From positions 27,060-91,059 of the forward strand of contig JAFSYK010000064.1 of assembly GCA_017449975.1 (NCBI GenBank): 64,000 bases of DNA, in the 5' to 3' direction. The position numbers and the translations under genes were made by a program. Position 1 is the first letter of the stretch, and the number at the start of each line of letters is the position of its first letter. The notes below the pieces were generated by a model. It was not told the origin of the DNA. It was given only the letters and a program-made list of their open reading frames with translations, and did not search any database. Origin of the DNA: Bacteroidales bacterium. Lineage in GTDB: Bacteria > Bacteroidota > Bacteroidia > Bacteroidales > P3. Positions 8,465 to 38,996 of this stretch are shown piece by piece.

Positions 8465-8512
8465 GGTCAGAAGGGTCTGACATGTCCGACATGTCGTACC
8501 CAATACCAACAA

Positions 8513-8540
8513 CCTGTCGGAGGGGAGACCTTCCGACAGG
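8513..8540 (+). terminator. hairpin after the kdd-like gene
   Basis: cctgtcgga ... tccgacagg 9-bp stem followed by ttctattctc. Confidence 0.5.
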
Positions 8541-8565
8541 TTCTATTCTCAATAAATCGGCAATC

Positions 8566-8622
8566 CCGCACTAACGCATTTACGCATTCCCACAATAACA
8601 CATTAACGCACTAACGCATTCC
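8566..8622. repeat. TAACGCA(T/C)T word repeats
   Basis: cgcactaacgcatttacgcattcccacaataacacattaacgcactaacgcattcccc. The same words recur at 18238-18268. Confidence 0.8.
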
Positions 8623-8625
8623 CCT

Positions 8626-9570
8626 ATGATCTCACTCGTTATCCCTGTCTACAACCGTCCCGATGAAATTGTTGAGCTGTTGGAAAGCATTTCCCAGCAG
8701 GGCGACACCGATTTTGAAGTGATAGTGGTGGAGGATGGCTCGACACGCACCTGCAAGGAGGAGATTGCACCGTTTGCCGACAAGTTCAAGTTGCAGTATT
8801 TCTTCAAGGAGAATTCAGGTCCGGGTCCCAGTCGCAACTACGGCGTGCAACATGCGTCGGGCGACTATGTCATTGTGCTCGATTCCGACTGCATCTTGCC
8901 GGCCGATTACATGCGTGTCGTTCGACAGCATTTGGATAACGAACAGATCGATGCTTTCGGTGGCCCCGACAAGGCGCATGCTTCGTTTACCACGCTGCAG
9001 AAAGCTATCAACTATTCCATGACTTCGTTTCTCACCACGGGTGGCATCCGCGGCGGCATGAAGAATGTCAACAAGTTCCATCCGCGTAGTTTCAATATGG
9101 GTGTGCGTACCGAGGTGTGGAACAAGCTCGGCGGCTTCTCCCAGATGCGCTATGGCGAAGACATCGATTTCAGTATCCGTCTCAAAGAGGCAGGCTATAA
9201 GGTTGTGTTGATGCCGGATGCCTGGGTGTGGCACAAGCGACGCAACACGCTCAAGAGTTTCTTCAACCAGGTGTTCCATTTCGGACAGGCACGTATCTGC
9301 CTCTATCGCCTTCATCCCGACACGCTGAAGTTGGTACACCTGTTCCCGTCGGCTTTCGTGGTGGGCGTTGTTCTGCTGTTGCTGGCGGCTCCGTTTACCT
9401 ATGCACTCTCGCTGATTCCGATTGTCTTATTGGCTCTGCTTCTTTTCCTTGACTCGTTGCGTTTGAACAAGAGCTTCAAGGTGGCAGCCCTCTCCATCGT
9501 CACCGCTTTCACGCAGCAGTTCGGCTACGGACTGGGCTTCCTGCGGGAAATGGTCAGGGGCAAGAAATAA
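8626..9570 (+). CDS. family 2 glycosyltransferase with C-terminal TM segments
   Basis: ISLVIPVYNRPDEI, EVIVVEDGS, VLDSDC, GEDIDFSIRL. Confidence 0.85.
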   Translation: MISLVIPVYNRPDEIVELLESISQQGDTDFEVIVVEDGSTRTCKEEIAPFADKFKLQYFFKENSGPGPSRNYGVQHASGDYVIVLDSDCILPADYMRVVRQHLDNEQIDAFGGPDKAHASFTTLQKAINYSMTSFLTTGGIRGGMKNVNKFHPRSFNMGVRTEVWNKLGGFSQMRYGEDIDFSIRLKEAGYKVVLMPDAWVWHKRRNTLKSFFNQVFHFGQARICLYRLHPDTLKLVHLFPSAFVVGVVLLLLAAPFTYALSLIPIVLLALLLFLDSLRLNKSFKVAALSIVTAFTQQFGYGLGFLREMVRGKK

Positions 9571-31544: not shown

Positions 31545-31763
31545 TTATCCAATTCTTTGAACGTCCAAATATGCCATACTTAATGCGCCAGCCCTGCGGA
31601 TGTCGATGCCATAGATACGCATGAATGCATCGGCGACGGCTTGACCTCCGTTAGTGGTGACGGGGTTGGTGATGCTGTTGGTTACGACATCTACGCTCAT
31701 TCCCTTCTCTACGCGGATGCCACTGGTGAGCTTGCTGCTCTTGATGGTTACTCTGTATACCAT
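31545..31763 (-). CDS. small hypothetical protein (72 aa)
   Basis: MVYRVTIKSSKLTSGIRVEKGMSVDVV...GGQAVADAFMRIYGIDIRRAGAL. First gene downstream of the leader. Confidence 0.5.
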   Translation of the reverse strand: MVYRVTIKSSKLTSGIRVEKGMSVDVVTNSITNPVTTNGGQAVADAFMRIYGIDIRRAGALSMAYLDVQRIG

Positions 31764-31860
31764 AGTTTTATTTTTATAAGGTTTGTATTTTTGCAATATT
31801 ACTGATTCTTTGGTGCTCTTACCCCGATTATAGACAATTATAGTAAAAATCACACCTGTA

Positions 31861-32180
31861 CGGCAGGGTGGGGTGGTGCTCCTTTTTTCGCCCTTGAGTT
31901 CTCAGTAGGGCGGTTATTTATAAATACAAGGAAAGCATAGAACTCGTGTTGTCGTTTCTACGAACTGTGGGCATCGCCAAACGCCTCTCCCGAATAGAAA
32001 CTGAGAACCCTGTCCTATGCTTTACGCTATGTAGAGGCATAAAGCCAATACATACACGAAAAAGCAAAAGGCATCGTACCAGTGTCCTCAGGATGAAATT
32101 TGGCGAATTTACAGCTCGGACCGTACAAATGCTTTCCGCAATTGTTCGACGTACTCTCGTCGATTGTGGTTGCAAATATA
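31861..32180 (-). ncRNA. promoter (-7 box TATATTTG at 32173-32180) plus structured leader, copy A
   Basis: Reverse complement aligns along its length with 38187..38480. Shared blocks include CGACGAGAG, GTCGAACAAT, AAGCATTTGTA, TTCGCCAAATTT, GATGCCTTTTGCTTT, GGCGTTTGGCGATGCC and GAGTTCTATGCTTT. Confidence 0.5.
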
Positions 32181-32225
32181 ACATTTTTTTCTGGTATGAT
32201 GCCTTATTGGGTAAGGTATATGGTA

Positions 32226-32432
32226 TTATTTAAAGAATAGTTTGGCAATCCGGATTTCTATGGGGAACCATAGCAGCACATAGAGAATCCACCACCAGAA
32301 TGATATGCTGTCTCCGGCCGATATCATGTGGAAGGTTTTGATTGTGCAACTCACAACCGCCACAATGTATAGCAATAATAGTAGTATTATGCCAGTGAGG
32401 ATGCCACCAGTGCCTTCAGTGTTGTCTTCCAT
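32226..32432 (-). CDS. small two-TM membrane protein (68 aa)
   Basis: Two hydrophobic segments. Its own promoter module lies at 32459-32513. Confidence 0.35.
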   Translation of the reverse strand: MEDNTEGTGGILTGIILLLLLYIVAVVSCTIKTFHMISAGDSISFWWWILYVLLWFPIEIRIAKLFFK

Positions 32433-32458
32433 GTCAGTGCGTTTTATTGAGACGCCTG

Positions 32459-32513
32459 CAAAGGTACACCGATTGCCGTTGGCTTATGCCAATTATAGGC
32501 AATTATAGAAAAA
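32459..32513 (-). promoter_or_regulatory. promoter module: TTTTTCTATAATTGCCTATAAT, spacer, GGTGTACCTTTGCA
   Basis: Same architecture, and an identical 13-nt GGTGTACCTTTGC, as at 26878-26931. Confidence 0.55.
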
Positions 32514-32517
32514 AAAA

Positions 32518-33795
32518 CTACAACATGTCGGGCAGGGTGGGGTAGAGCTGGTGCAGGAGCAGCTTGAATTCGTAAGCGGCACTCTTGGCATAGCCACTGT
32601 CACGGTCTTTGACCCATTGCGGGCCGAAGAAGAATTGGCGCATTTTTCTGTAGGATCCCCTTTCGGTGAGACATCGGATGAGGTAGATGAGTTCGTATGA
32701 TTTGCCGTTCCGGCCTTTCCATTCAATGGGTACAATGCGCTCGGGGCGCATCTTGGACGAGAAACGGTAGGCGAACATCTGTTTCACCTGATTGTTGTTG
32801 TCGATATAGCCGTGCGCTGCCAAGGCGTTGATCAGCTCTGCAAAGCGTTCGGCTCCGTTTTTCACCACCTCGTATCGCAGGTTGAAGCAGTCGTCGCTGT
32901 TGGTCGATTCGTTTTTCAGCGAGAAATAGTCGGGCGGAAGGCTGAAGTCGTCTCCGTCTACTTCAACGGTCTGCAGCTGCGCTTTGGCTTCCGGCCTGCT
33001 CAGTATGGATTCGATGATTTTCCGTTCGCGAGGCTTGTAGTCTGTTATGTCGTCGGTGTAGAAGCTGCAGAGCCACAGGAATGTGTTTTGTGTGTTTTCG
33101 TATTGGGCGCGGTAGTAGGCTTTTACATCAGCATTGTACTCGTATTCGTTCCCGTATTCTTGGTTCAGGAGTTGCGTGCCTATCTGCGACATATTCTCTA
33201 TAGAGCGCAGCATCATTTGCCCTTCTTTGTTTACGTCGTTGGTATTGGTGGTGGCTATCGCATCCATGGCGGTAAAGAGCTCCTCAAGCGGCAGAGAGAA
33301 AACAGAAGAGGTGTCAGGCCACACAAGGCTGCAAAGTGCGCTGATTGCCCTTAAACCGCATGGTTTGTTGTGCAGCAGCGTGACAAACGCTTCTTTGTCG
33401 TTGCGGGCATAGCTGTCTTGCAGCTGGTTGAGGGTGGCGGAGTCGGCATCGATGGTGCCAATAAACTCTTTTGCCGAGTAGGGTTCCAGTGAGAGAAGGG
33501 TGTGGTAGATTTCTTCGGGTGATAGCGAGGTTTCTTGCTCTTTGGCCTCATCCAGAATTTCCTGCCACCATTCATGTATCATCCGGTTGTTGTTGATGAA
33601 CGAGAGTACGCGATGCAGGGGTGCGACGACGTTCATGATCAGTGCCTGCGATTCGCGGAAAATGGGTTCCAGCTCTGGATTCTCTTGGTCGGCCAACACT
33701 TCGGCCAGTACCTCATCGGGCAGGTGGTATTCACTTGCCTTCTCCAGACCCTTGTAGTATTGTTTCATCCGTTCCGCTTTGGAAATGTAGTTCAT
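32518..33795 (-). CDS. hypothetical protein (425 aa)
   Basis: Long ORF with ATG start. The -7 box TACATTTG lies at 33877-33884 on the minus strand. No recognisable motif. Confidence 0.7.
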   Translation of the reverse strand: MNYISKAERMKQYYKGLEKASEYHLPDEVLAEVLADQENPELEPIFRESQALIMNVVAPLHRVLSFINNNRMIHEWWQEILDEAKEQETSLSPEEIYHTLLSLEPYSAKEFIGTIDADSATLNQLQDSYARNDKEAFVTLLHNKPCGLRAISALCSLVWPDTSSVFSLPLEELFTAMDAIATTNTNDVNKEGQMMLRSIENMSQIGTQLLNQEYGNEYEYNADVKAYYRAQYENTQNTFLWLCSFYTDDITDYKPRERKIIESILSRPEAKAQLQTVEVDGDDFSLPPDYFSLKNESTNSDDCFNLRYEVVKNGAERFAELINALAAHGYIDNNNQVKQMFAYRFSSKMRPERIVPIEWKGRNGKSYELIYLIRCLTERGSYRKMRQFFFGPQWVKDRDSGYAKSAAYEFKLLLHQLYPTLPDML

Positions 33796-37233: not shown

Positions 37234-38055
37234 TTCCCAAGGGTATTCCACCTTTGTCAGAAAGAGTCCTTGGGCGGGCATGCTGACGCCGGCGGCACAA
37301 CGGTCTTTGCGCTCAACGATTTCGCGGAGTCCGTCGATGGAGAGTTTGCCGCGTCCCACATCGAGCAGGGTGCCGGTGACGCTGCGCACCATGTTGCGCA
37401 GGAATCGGTTGCTGCGGATGGTGAAAACCCACTCGTCTCCCACCTCATCCCAATGAGCTTCGCTCAGATGGCAGATGTTGGTCTTGACCTGTGTGTGCAG
37501 CTTGGCGAAACTGGTGAAGTCGTCGTACTCCATCAGCACCTGTGCCGCCTCGTTCATGCGGTCGATGTCGGGCTTGAAGAAGATGCGGCAGTAGAGTCCC
37601 TGGCGGAACGGCAGCCGTCGGTCGGAGACGTGGTACTGGTAGGTGCGTGCCACCGCGTCGAAACGGGCGTGGGCGTTGTCAGCCACAGAAAAGATACTGT
37701 ATATGGCGATGTCGCCTGGCAGATAGGAGTTCAGTTTGAAGGTGAGCAGGTCGGTGTCGAGGATATTTGTGGATTTAGAAGTAGGCTTAGTAGTCTTTTC
37801 TTCGTCACAACTCGACTCCCCCTCTATAGCCTCATTCTGCTGGCTGTTTTTGCTTGGATAGTCGAAGTGGGCGTAGAAGTCGCTGGCGTGGACACCCGTG
37901 TCCGTGCGTCCGCATCCCACCACCGCTGTCGGCTGCCGCAGCAGCGTCGTCAGTGCCTGTTCCAGCGTCAGCTGCACGGTGGGCAAGTTGGGCTGTGTCT
38001 GCCAGCCGCAATAGTTGCCGCCGTGATAAGCCAGATGGATGAAATAGCGCGACAT
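37222..38055 (-). CDS. truA: tRNA pseudouridine(38-40) synthase
   Basis: YHGGNYCGWQ, GCGRTDTGVHA catalytic Asp motif, RFLRNMVR. Contains a 30-aa AT-rich insert. Confidence 0.9.
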   Translation of the reverse strand: MSRYFIHLAYHGGNYCGWQTQPNLPTVQLTLEQALTTLLRQPTAVVGCGRTDTGVHASDFYAHFDYPSKNSQQNEAIEGESSCDEEKTTKPTSKSTNILDTDLLTFKLNSYLPGDIAIYSIFSVADNAHARFDAVARTYQYHVSDRRLPFRQGLYCRIFFKPDIDRMNEAAQVLMEYDDFTSFAKLHTQVKTNICHLSEAHWDEVGDEWVFTIRSNRFLRNMVRSVTGTLLDVGRGKLSIDGLREIVERKDRCAAGVSMPAQGLFLTKVEYPWETKK

Positions 38056-38186
38056 CAGGAAATAGCGAATTCGAAATAAATTGCAAAAATACGCATTTTT
38101 ATACTTCTATGCGATATCAAATCAGCGTAACATCGTTCTCTCAAAGATTCTTATCCGATAATGTGTTAGTATAAAAAATAAATGTG

Positions 38187-38480
38187 TATCTTTGCGCATC
38201 GTTTCGACGAGAGAAAGTCGAACAATGCGAAGAAAAGCATTTGTATTGGTCCGCTCTTTAAAGTTCGCCAAATTTTAACCAAAGGACAACGATACTGATG
38301 CCTTTTGCTTTGGTCTATGTATTGGTATCATTCCACTACATAACGAAGCATAGGATAAGGTTCAAGTTAGTTTTACTTTGGGAAGGCGTTTGGCGATGCC
38401 TAAAGAGCGTAGAACAAACAACTGAGTTCTATGCTTTTTTTATTTAGTATAACGCCGACCACCGGGAACTCGGGTCGGCA
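38187..38480 (+). ncRNA. promoter (-7 box TATCTTTG at 38187-38194) plus structured leader, copy B
   Basis: Homologous to the reverse complement of 31861..32180. Terminal helix GAAAAGCAT/ATGCTTTTT and 3' hairpin GCCGACC/GGTCGGC both carry compensatory differences relative to copy A. Confidence 0.5.
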
Positions 38481-38510
38481 TGAAATAAATAATACCGACG
38501 AAAGAATGGT

Positions 38511-38996
38511 ATGAAAAGAATCATTGTTTCACTAATAGGTGTGGTAATGCTCTTTATATCCTGTAAGAGTGATTTAGACGGAGCAATTCATTCTGCTGTC
38601 AGAGACGGTGTAATATCTTCTGAAGAATGGAATGAAATTGTAAGAGAAGCCACATCGAATCAAATATTTATTGACGAAAATGGGATTTTTTCTACCAGTT
38701 TGTTACAGGATTATATCAGGGAATATGTGGTAAATAACATGCGTGGAGTTAATGATATTCAGTTTTCCGAGGATATTGTTTTAACACCTGCTCCAGATTC
38801 ATCAAAATCAGTTGAATGTATATTCAAGTTTTTCCTTGAGCGTAGTGGAAGTATGATTCCCTATGATGAGAGACATACTTCTGGACAGTTTAAGAGCGCT
38901 ATTACGGGCTTATTGAATTCTGTGCCCAATAATACAATCCAGTTCATTACGGGGTGTACTCTCAAATCATCTGCAATGACAAAAGGTAGCAAGTGA
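38511..38996 (+). CDS. lipoprotein ending in a truncated vWA-like MIDAS segment (possible gene remnant)
   Basis: Lipobox MLFISCKSD. FKFFLERSGSMIPYD resembles the vWA beta1-DxSxS motif, but only about 55 aa follow it. Confidence 0.45.
   Translation: MKRIIVSLIGVVMLFISCKSDLDGAIHSAVRDGVISSEEWNEIVREATSNQIFIDENGIFSTSLLQDYIREYVVNNMRGVNDIQFSEDIVLTPAPDSSKSVECIFKFFLERSGSMIPYDERHTSGQFKSAITGLLNSVPNNTIQFITGCTLKSSAMTKGSK

Follow-up and report, generated by a model that had tools for sequence, protein, structure and literature searches.

A multicopy structured RNA leader of Bacteroidales with competing predicted folds, comparable to a zipper-type attenuator

The window analysed here is a 64,000-nucleotide (nt) stretch of a Bacteroidales bacterium (assembly GCA_017449975.1, contig JAFSYK010000064.1, positions 27,060 to 91,059), and it carries two copies of an RNA leader, copy A on the minus strand and copy B on the plus strand. 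They belong to an uncatalogued RNA family of about 285 nt that is centred on Bacteroidales and absent from Rfam. A preliminary description had argued from covariation between the two copies that the element acts as an RNA, and this is borne out by more than 130 non-redundant homologues that covary in every main helix. The covariation shows a strand-specific structured RNA family, predicted to form the 5' leader of many unrelated mRNAs. We assign a probability of about 0.5 to the reading that the leader switches between conformations by a logic that most resembles a zipper-type transcription attenuator, with two competing folds that probably decide whether the gene behind the leader is expressed.

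The consensus fold consists of a 5' hairpin, a long rod made of the helices P2, P3 and P4 plus an apical helix and tip, a closing helix P1 and a 3' hairpin. Four segments matter most for the switch. A is the 5' strand of P1; I' and I are the two strands of the apical helix; and S3 is a partner-switching strand overlapping X, a stretch of 7–9 nt just 5' of the P1 3' strand. X is complementary to X', which lies 26–45 nt downstream in the loop of the 3' hairpin. The parts of copy B are as follows, in window coordinates.

38187–38194, plus strand: −7 box TATCTTTG of the Bacteroidota TAnnTTTG type, read from the sequence
38202–38222, plus strand: 5' hairpin H0 (TTTCGAC...GTCGAAC) at the transcript 5' end, in minimum free energy (MFE) folds; 5 of 5 pairs change on both sides
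38233–38240, plus strand: segment A, AAAAGCAT, 5' strand of the closing helix P1; partner at 38431–38438
38252–38260, plus strand: P2 5' strand CGCTCTTTA; partner at 38401–38409; 9 of 9 pairs change on both sides
38265–38272, plus strand: P3 5' strand TCGCCAAA, near-invariant across the order; partner TTTGGCGA at 38389–38396
38279–38287, plus strand: P4 5' strand CCAAAGGAC; partner at 38370–38382; 7 of 7 pairs change on both sides
38297–38308, plus strand: segment I', GATGCCTTTTGC, apical-helix 5' strand, similar to S3; pairs with I in the rod fold
38316–38342, plus strand: apical hairpin TATGTA...TACATA, the variable rod tip; apical helices covary
38348–38356, plus strand: segment I, GCATAGGAT, partner of I' (rod) or of S3 (terminator-like stem)
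38385–38400, plus strand: local hairpin GGCG-TTTGGCGA-TGCC, whose loop is the P3 3' strand; its Y:R pair covaries
38424–38434, plus strand: segment S3, X (GAGTTCT) plus ATGC; pairings with X', I and A
38431–38441, plus strand: P1 3' strand ATGCTTTT, leading into the U-run
38454–38479, plus strand: 3' hairpin GCCGACC/GGTCGGC with X' GGAACTCG in its loop (38465–38472); the stem covaries
38480–38513, plus strand: A-rich spacer and the ATG (38511) of a lipoprotein gene (open reading frame (ORF) 38511–38996) that opens an SrfB/SrfC operon (SrfB and SrfC by Pfam)

The corresponding parts of copy A are these.

31888–32180, minus strand: whole unit; covariance model R1, built from 36 copies of the same genus, gives 229 bits at window 31888–32172
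32173–32180, minus strand: −7 box TATATTTG
32146–32163, minus strand: H0
32129–32137, minus strand: segment A, GGAAAGCAT
32099–32106, minus strand: P3 5' strand TCGCCAAA
32012–32020, minus strand: segment I, GCATAGGAC
31970–31985, minus strand: local hairpin
31930–31945, minus strand: X and P1 3' strand, GAGTTCTATGCTTTCC
31889–31912, minus strand: 3' hairpin CGCCCT/AGGGCG with X' AGAACTC in its loop (31896–31902)
31545–31763, minus strand: first gene behind the copy, a 72-aa DUF6140 protein (Pfam PF19637, E 1.9e-34) that opens a small-protein/AAA ATPase operon

Direct reading of positions 37900–38800 on the plus strand and 31600–32500 on the minus strand located every feature that the preliminary description had named. 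The terminal helix differs between the copies and stays paired, being GAAAAGCAT (38232–38240) with ATGCTTTTT (38431–38439) in copy B and GGAAAGCAT with ATGCTTTCC in copy A. The 3' hairpins likewise have different stems and similar loops (ACCGGGAACTCG in copy B and ACTGAGAACTCA in copy A), while the long-range pairing of TCGCCAAA with TTTGGCGA is the same in both. The upstream ORF at 38225–38278 is indeed not conserved, since copy A has no ATG at the equivalent site. The two copies show 80% column identity over about 290 nt when aligned with MAFFT, and 78% identity across 243 nt by BLAST. Folded as a single strand, copy B reaches −98 kcal/mol, compared to −68 ± 4.7 kcal/mol for dinucleotide shuffles (z −6.4), and copy A has a z of −5.8 against the same kind of shuffle. 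For neither copy did any of 200 shuffles equal the native fold.

RNAalifold on the raw MAFFT alignment gave a fragmentary result, and it was replaced by a consensus voted from per-sequence pair probabilities. In a MAFFT alignment of the 36 genus copies, 87.4% of the cells are paired according to this consensus, compared to 31–44% when the partners are slid, and there are 195 cells with a double change compared to 75 ± 7 in shuffles (0 of 500 reaching the observed value). The same was seen across the order. In a 54-copy alignment, which was fitted to the model and hence somewhat favours it, 90.7% of the cells are paired compared to 34–43% with slid partners; 67 of 82 pairs show two-sided changes, amounting to 661 such cells compared to 199 when shuffled (0 of 500). 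A test that uses no alignment was applied to 135 copies by comparing the duplex formed by cognate strands with those formed by strands taken from different copies. The cognate duplex falls in the top 10% in 96% of copies for P2 and in 88% for P4.

The other helices behave similarly. In the 54 copies, one pair of P1 is A:U in 31 and G:C in 21, and the outermost pair takes the forms AU, GU and GC. P3, which is the pairing of UCGCCAAA with UUUGGCGA, seldom changes, and when it does the change is compensated: UCGCCAG/CUGGCGA in loci L158 and L185, CCGCC/GGCGG in L159, and UCGGCAAA/UUUGCCGA in copy F of the source genome. The 3' hairpin stem covaries in both the genus and order-wide alignments. The apical helices covary as well, and the tip varies widely in length and sequence across the order. 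Invariant across the order are AAGCRU, RAA-UCGCCAA, GGYGUUUGGCGAURCCU and CYAYGCUU, with the apical two thirds of the RNA varying freely. The order-wide alignment also contains many conserved G:U pairs, and because these would be C·A on the opposite strand, the functional strand is the promoter-sense strand. A side hairpin P1a (UAGAAC/GUUCUA) was considered as part of the family core and rejected; it is kept in the genus and not in distant copies.

The 3' segment of the leader has two covarying sets of partners. One set is A together with the downstream loop X', and the other is the internal segment I (GCRURGG). The preliminary description had suspected the second when it proposed that the 3' CTATGCTTT might pair alternatively with an internal GCATAG, and that pairing covaries across the family. 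In the first set, cognate X and X' form duplexes with a mean of −10.1 kcal/mol, compared to −6.5 kcal/mol for non-cognate combinations, and the cognate duplex is in the top 10% in 43 of 64 copies. The pair is GAGUUCU/AGAACUC in the genus. Elsewhere it takes the forms GUUCCCC/GGGGAAC, GUGCUCUC/GAGAGUGU, UUAGUCC/GGACUAA, UGCGUCUC/GGGACGCA, AUAUCCUC/GAGGAUGU and CGGAGUCCA/UGGACUCCG, and in copies D, E and F of the source genome it is ACCUC/GGAGGU, AACCUC/GAGGUU and ACCCUC/GAGGGU. Together with P1, the predicted X:X' pairing is an H-type pseudoknot. Since some copies have GGAGG in X' and CCUC in X, we considered X' as a Shine–Dalgarno sequence with X as its anti-Shine–Dalgarno; this was rejected in that X' lies about 23–40 nt from the ATG and most versions are GGGAAC-like.

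In the second set, I, which forms the 3' side of the apical helix, finds its complement in S3, made up of the final 6 nt of X and AYGC. Over 117 copies the I:S3 duplex has a mean of 8.6 bp and −12.5 kcal/mol. The stem of 8–9 bp is mostly G+C-rich and is immediately followed by a U-run; the 8 nt behind AYGC contain five or more U in 109 of the 117 copies and six or more in 97. Differences between types are compensated: GCAUAGGA/UUCUAUGC, GCGUGGG/CCCACGC, GCGUGAG/CUCAUGC, GCGCGGG/CCCGCGC and GCGUAGGG/CCCUACGC. The pairings X:X', I:S3 and A:AYGCUUUU overlap and are therefore mutually exclusive; formation of I:S3 excludes I':I, P1 and X:X'.

A third covarying alternative is a local hairpin, GGYG/URCC, that flanks UUUGGCGA. 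Its Y:R pair is C:G in 34 copies, U:A in 24, U:G in 4 and C:A in none, and in the 54-copy alignment the counts are 33 CG, 17 UA, 3 UG and 1 other. Because the loop of this hairpin is a P3 strand, the hairpin either alternates with P3 or forms a strained loop–strand pseudoknot. The order of synthesis adds one more helix. If only the part of the transcript that precedes I is folded, the MFE structure has A paired with I' in 93 of 117 copies, and in the full-length MFE structure, I is paired with I' in 108 of 117; A is nearly invariant, so the A:I' pairing is beyond the reach of covariation. A fully zipped state of two hairpins (P2 5' strand with P4 5' strand, and P4 3' strand with P2 3' strand) was discarded, its cognate duplexes being no better than non-cognate ones (11–13% in the top 10%). 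This leaves A:I', I:S3 and the local hairpin as the only alternative helices.

The position of the leader between promoter and gene is regular. The TAnnTTTG box stands at the same distance in all 36 genus copies and in most distant copies, and the orientation is fixed as promoter, RNA, ORF. For 123 non-redundant copies, the spacer was taken as the distance between the model's end and the first ATG that opens an ORF of 40 aa or more. It is 8–30 nt in 78 of them and 12–20 nt in 56, with a mode of 13–14 nt. It consists of 45% A, with enrichment of A at −3 and at −11 to −14. In about one third of the copies the first ORF begins farther away than 30 nt; copy A, at 125 nt, and copy B, at 31 nt, are among them.

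These elements can be arranged into a switch as follows. A housekeeping-type promoter would start the transcript, and the 5' hairpin and the rod (P2, P3, P4 and I':I) would fold, with P1 closing the rod by pairing A (AAAAGCRU) with AYGCUUUU. During transcription, A would pair first with I'. If A:I' persists, I would be left free to pair with the emerging S3, giving an intrinsic terminator and keeping the gene in an off state, to which the local hairpin GGYG-UUUGGCGA-URCC would also be assigned. If instead I displaces A from I', the rod would zip, A would capture AYGCUUUU, no terminator would form and RNA polymerase would read through, after which X' would lock X away. The nearly invariant core formed by UCGCCAAA and GGYGUUUGGCGAURCC is the most likely contact for a trigger, which may be a protein, an RNA or a ligand. 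Its effect would reach a large number of unrelated genes together, of the surface, secreted and conflict types.

Several observations weigh against this attenuator model. The terminator-like stem encloses about 70–90 nt, which is unusual for an intrinsic terminator, and a simple terminator scan makes no call at the I:S3 stem. The U-run is fully pairable with the A-rich 5' strand of P1 and may be part of a helix rather than a terminator tail; that termination occurs there is deduced from sequence. Forcing I:S3 and the local hairpin to form costs about 15 kcal/mol relative to the rod, so that the off state would have to be kinetic or stabilised by a factor. Because X' lies after the U-run, it cannot influence termination, and its strong conservation and fixed distance to the ATG point at least equally to translation or RNA stability. 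The I:S3 complementarity could in part be a by-product, since I' is matched by A as well as by I, and A by S3 as well as by I'. Finally, the downstream genes share no function and therefore give no hint of the signal.

One alternative is that the leader is a translation or mRNA-stability element, in which the rod and pseudoknot are a single functional fold of the 5' untranslated region near the start codon. It would shield the mRNA 5' end or gate access of the Shine–Dalgarno-independent Bacteroidota ribosome to an A-rich landing site, either constitutively or through a factor that opens or closes X:X'. We consider this unlikely, though it deserves serious attention. It accounts well for the sharply peaked, A-rich spacer behind the X' hairpin, for the rod being by far the most stable fold, for the 5' terminal hairpin in nearly all copies, and for the strong covariation of X' with X even though X' is made after the U-run. 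It leaves unexplained the covariation of I:S3 and of the GGYG/URCC hairpin, both incompatible with the rod, as well as the U-run after S3, and it fits poorly with the third of copies lying farther than 30 nt from an ORF and with the absence of X' from about 8 of 64 copies. A true riboswitch would have the same two-state anatomy as the attenuator, the trigger being a small molecule, for instance a nucleotide second messenger, that binds to the invariant core. Pseudoknots, mutually exclusive helices and an invariant core (UCGCCAAA, GGYGUUUGGCGAURCC, RAA) set within freely covarying helices speak for such an element, and a global signal would fit adhesin-like surface proteins, signalling proteins and accessory operons. 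The genes behind the leader are of many kinds, with surface and signalling proteins well represented, and in this they resemble the gene sets of c-di-GMP riboswitches. We nevertheless regard it as doubtful, because no coherent gene set among about 120 first ORFs points to one ligand, the conserved core is mostly Watson–Crick duplex with no obvious pocket, there is free variation over the RNA's apical two thirds, and no known riboswitch model matches.

Two alternatives remain. If the copies were independent small RNA genes, an RNA of about 245 nt ending at the U-run would act in trans, and the position beside genes would reflect the edges of acquired DNA. Each copy does have its own promoter and a helix with a U-run about 245 nt in; a few copies are without an ORF within several hundred nt; copy C of the source genome faces the 3' end of a convergent gene with no gene behind it; and multicopy paralogous small RNA families exist in Bacteroides, for example FopS (PMC11697453). 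The fixed order of promoter, RNA and ORF and the tight spacer distribution make this improbable, as does the inclusion of X', beyond the U-run, in the covarying structure; copy C, for its part, is without its 3' end and decayed in appearance. A DNA-level element, such as a mobile promoter cassette, a repeat resembling a miniature inverted-repeat transposable element or a recombination site, is scarcely credible and appears largely refuted by the covariation: the helices stay paired through two-sided changes while the sequence drifts, and the conserved G:U pairs make the structure strand-specific. What speaks for it is that many copies per genome stand before unrelated, often AT-rich acquired genes, that copies A and B flank a 6-kb core segment in inverted orientation, and that some copies are on contigs classed as viral. 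It is opposed further by the fixed orientation to the gene and the tight ATG spacing, by the alignment, in which no terminal inverted repeats or target duplications were found at the borders, and by the plasmid and phage collections, in which BLAST found no match to the leader.

The attenuator model finds its nearest parallel in cATT of Bacillus subtilis plasmid pLS20, a zipper-type transcriptional attenuator that has been demonstrated experimentally (Gonzalez-Alvarez et al., Nucleic Acids Res 2026, PMC13401043). Both have a long 5' leader with a long imperfect stem-loop (here, the rod P2–P4 with its apical helix, closed by P1), an upstream sequence complementary to the terminator region so that the stem can extend, or zip, into an antiterminator (for the leader, both terminator and antiterminator are predicted), an extended rod as the default or most stable state, and a most conserved sequence suspected of recruiting a factor. 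In cATT an early and weaker upstream pairing favours the terminator, and A:I' would be its predicted counterpart in the leader. The two are unrelated in sequence, with hosts in Bacteroidota in the one case and plasmids of Firmicutes in the other. The cATT terminator is a small local hairpin, while the 5' strand of the leader's terminator-like stem, I, is inside the rod near the tip, making the switch a four-segment strand exchange between A:I' plus I:S3 and I':I plus A:S3. The leader adds the covarying X' after the U-run and the competing hairpin around UUUGGCGA. While cATT precedes conAn1 of Gram-positive plasmid conjugation operons, a single kind of operon, the leader precedes dozens of unrelated genes per lineage, among them BspA-type leucine-rich repeat (LRR), DUF6140, FHA, HTH and SrfB/C operons, and it is known from sequence alone. 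By this analogy, the leader would work like the cATT kind without being a member of it.

More distant resemblances exist. Like the leader, riboswitches and protein-dependent attenuators act in cis from a 5' position, and they have in common with it helices that exclude each other, a stem with a U-run behind it, a pseudoknot and an unchanging core amid covarying helices; the leader differs from them in having no Rfam match, no common gene function and several divergent copies per genome. FopS of Bacteroides thetaiotaomicron (PMC11697453) is also a multicopy, paralogous, promoter-driven non-coding RNA of Bacteroidales found near variable accessory loci. The leader is set apart from FopS, by description only, in being about 285 nt long, reaching the start codon and having no SusC/SusD-type genes downstream. 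FopS RNAs are said to be far shorter, to act in trans and to adjoin polysaccharide utilisation loci. The hok-type mRNAs form metastable co-transcriptional folds with fold-back pairing between 5' and 3' ends, and are toxin mRNAs with an antisense partner and 3' processing. They resemble the leader in an early 5' hairpin unlike the final fold, a long-range closing helix between the 5' and 3' ends and a refolding that decides expression, but no toxin mRNA, antisense partner or 3' processing was seen at the leader.

Matches to known RNA families were sought in Rfam 15, in a set that took in 6S, Bacteroidales-1, Bacteroides-1 and -2, riboswitches, HEARO, GOLLD, ROOL, raiA and OLE. No family matches the leader at its gathering score, and nothing overlaps copy A or B at E ≤ 10; in the whole window only two tRNAs reach the gathering score. 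A 381-nt stretch searched alone gave only rox2, Ysr209 and Fibrobacter-1 at 15–19 bits, compared to thresholds of 55–78, and 20 loci with distant homologues gave one tRNA and nothing else. No description of the family was found in the literature by sequence words or by topic in the full text within reach, many subscription papers lying outside it. 6S RNA was considered and set aside: it is a single-copy, stand-alone rod with a central bubble resembling an open promoter, whereas the leader is multicopy (at least six copies in the source genome), has an ORF behind it and has no match to the Rfam 6S model. A T-box-like element or mimic of a tRNA 3' end, suggested by UGGC/GCCA in the invariant core, was also rejected, being only a resemblance with an unfit gene context.

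The family is widespread in Bacteroidales and nearly confined to it. With copy B as the BLAST query, one to three copies were found in 46 of 90 genomes of the same genus, and the named carrier records are rumen Bacteroidales metagenome-assembled genomes. Using R1, full-length matches of 25–61 bits were found in 58 of 401 sampled Bacteroidales genomes, representing 39 of 237 genera, and these further homologues covary. Only one or two genomes outside Bacteroidales matched in a phylum-wide sample of 401. Because only four candidates per genome were scored in the genome search, its copy numbers are floors. A first pattern scanned for, TCGCCAAAN{18,32}GATGCCTTTT, proved too loose and was abandoned; it gave mostly chance matches in all phyla, with L023, L056, L067, L097 and L122 as the only real loci. 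A specific pattern, TCGCCAAN{100,130}GYGTTTGGCGATRCC, matches 11 IMG/VR contigs and at least 120 metagenome contigs, many of them labelled human gut or rumen, and nearly all of these matches are full-length by R1.

In the whole source assembly (G000), nhmmer finds at least six copies, A to F, plus a short variant. The copies outside the window are these.

C39 (L005:2046–2373), minus strand: copy C, 3' end lost
C78:1697–1979: copy D
C62, about 8479–8746, minus strand: copy E
C50:9779–10046: copy F

The rod of copy C carries an extra insertion, and AYGC, the U-run and X' are all missing. The copy meets a convergent 556-aa ORF at that ORF's 3' end and has the appearance of a decayed leader into which a later insertion has cut. 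Directly upstream of the copy D promoter there are about eight heptamer repeats, TAAACCN (C78:1597–1654, or L191:1401–1458). The short divergent variant is at C47:18254–18376 on the minus strand and reads AAAAGCGU ... AUCGCCAAA ... GGGUUUUGGCGAACCU. It resembles partial matches (model positions 56–214) in other Bacteroidales genomes and may represent a mini subtype of the family. On one metagenome contig (L321:10000–10879, minus strand), two full-length leaders lie on the same strand only about 330 nt apart, which suggests either a tandem arrangement or that a very short gene is enclosed between them.

The first ORFs behind the leader are mutually unrelated. About 14 of 120 (about 11%) encode BspA-type LRR proteins, followed by DUF6140 (4), HTH (3), FHA (2) and SPFH (2). 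The others include a sigma-70 factor, an ABC ATPase, a PAS kinase, UbiA and a trypsin-like protein, along with many lipoproteins and signal-peptide proteins having no Pfam match. Pfam assigns about 40 different families per set of about 60 first ORFs, and SusC/TonB-type domains are absent among the Pfam families listed for the roughly 120. In the window itself, copy B heads the lipoprotein/SrfB/SrfC operon and copy A the operon of DUF6140, small proteins and AAA ATPase. The DUF6140 protein of about 72 aa is the most specific gene association found, being the very first gene behind the leader on the unrelated metagenome contigs L255, L206 and L216 as well.

A protein of 54–57 aa without a Pfam match (MKKTVYNAPVVETLAVKVEAGMQTSG...YESDSWDTPSP) is first behind leaders at L257:10900–11061, L239:572–733 and L279:2941–3111, and may be a small secreted or peptide-precursor-like product. 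In two loci of the genus, L130 and L131, the gene of a 182-aa membrane protein comes first behind the leader. The second ORF encodes a protein that begins with MSNHLIIGLGGTGGSVIREFRKRIYEEF, to the eye a tubulin/FtsZ-type GTPase signature, and the operon is another that resembles a conflict system. On one IMG/VR contig, the leader heads a seven-gene operon with a Sel1-repeat protein, an EF-Tu domain 2 protein and a HerA-like ATPase (L196:2806–12545), and on another it heads a BspA-type LRR gene adjoining an EcoRI-type methylase (L195:527–5283). Phage structural genes were not found among the few genes near the IMG/VR copies scanned (with Pfam, not PHROGs). Back in the window, a 68-aa ORF and a 425-aa ORF lie between copy A and a tRNA-Glu gene (32226–33795, minus strand).

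The human gut and the rumen are dominated by Bacteroidales, an order for which few cis-acting RNA regulators have been described and which lacks the Shine–Dalgarno-based control common elsewhere. The genes found behind the leader are those of BspA-type adhesin-like proteins, lipoproteins, SrfB/C operons, FHA/kinase modules and other acquired operons. It is tempting, if speculative and on balance doubtful, to see in this a Bacteroidales-wide post-initiation regulon, in which one RNA switch placed before dozens of unrelated operons, for surface proteins, secreted proteins and conflict systems, senses a single global signal through the UCGCCAAA/GGYGUUUGGCGAURCC core. Candidates for that signal are a nucleotide messenger and a dedicated RNA-binding factor. 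If this were true, the regulon would switch the accessory cell surface of gut and rumen Bacteroidales on and off together, and it would constitute a new class of riboswitch or ribo-regulator in a main phylum of the human gut. The switch helices are defined to the nucleotide and natural compensatory variants are at hand, and the presence of copies in human-gut metagenomes makes it likely that a cultivable carrier exists. Should a small molecule or a dedicated protein turn out to be the trigger, the leader would represent a new regulator class; if it is constitutive, it would be a portable expression module for engineering Bacteroidales. A two-state, pseudoknotted leader of 285 nt in multiple copies would be a major unrecognised layer of control over surface display.

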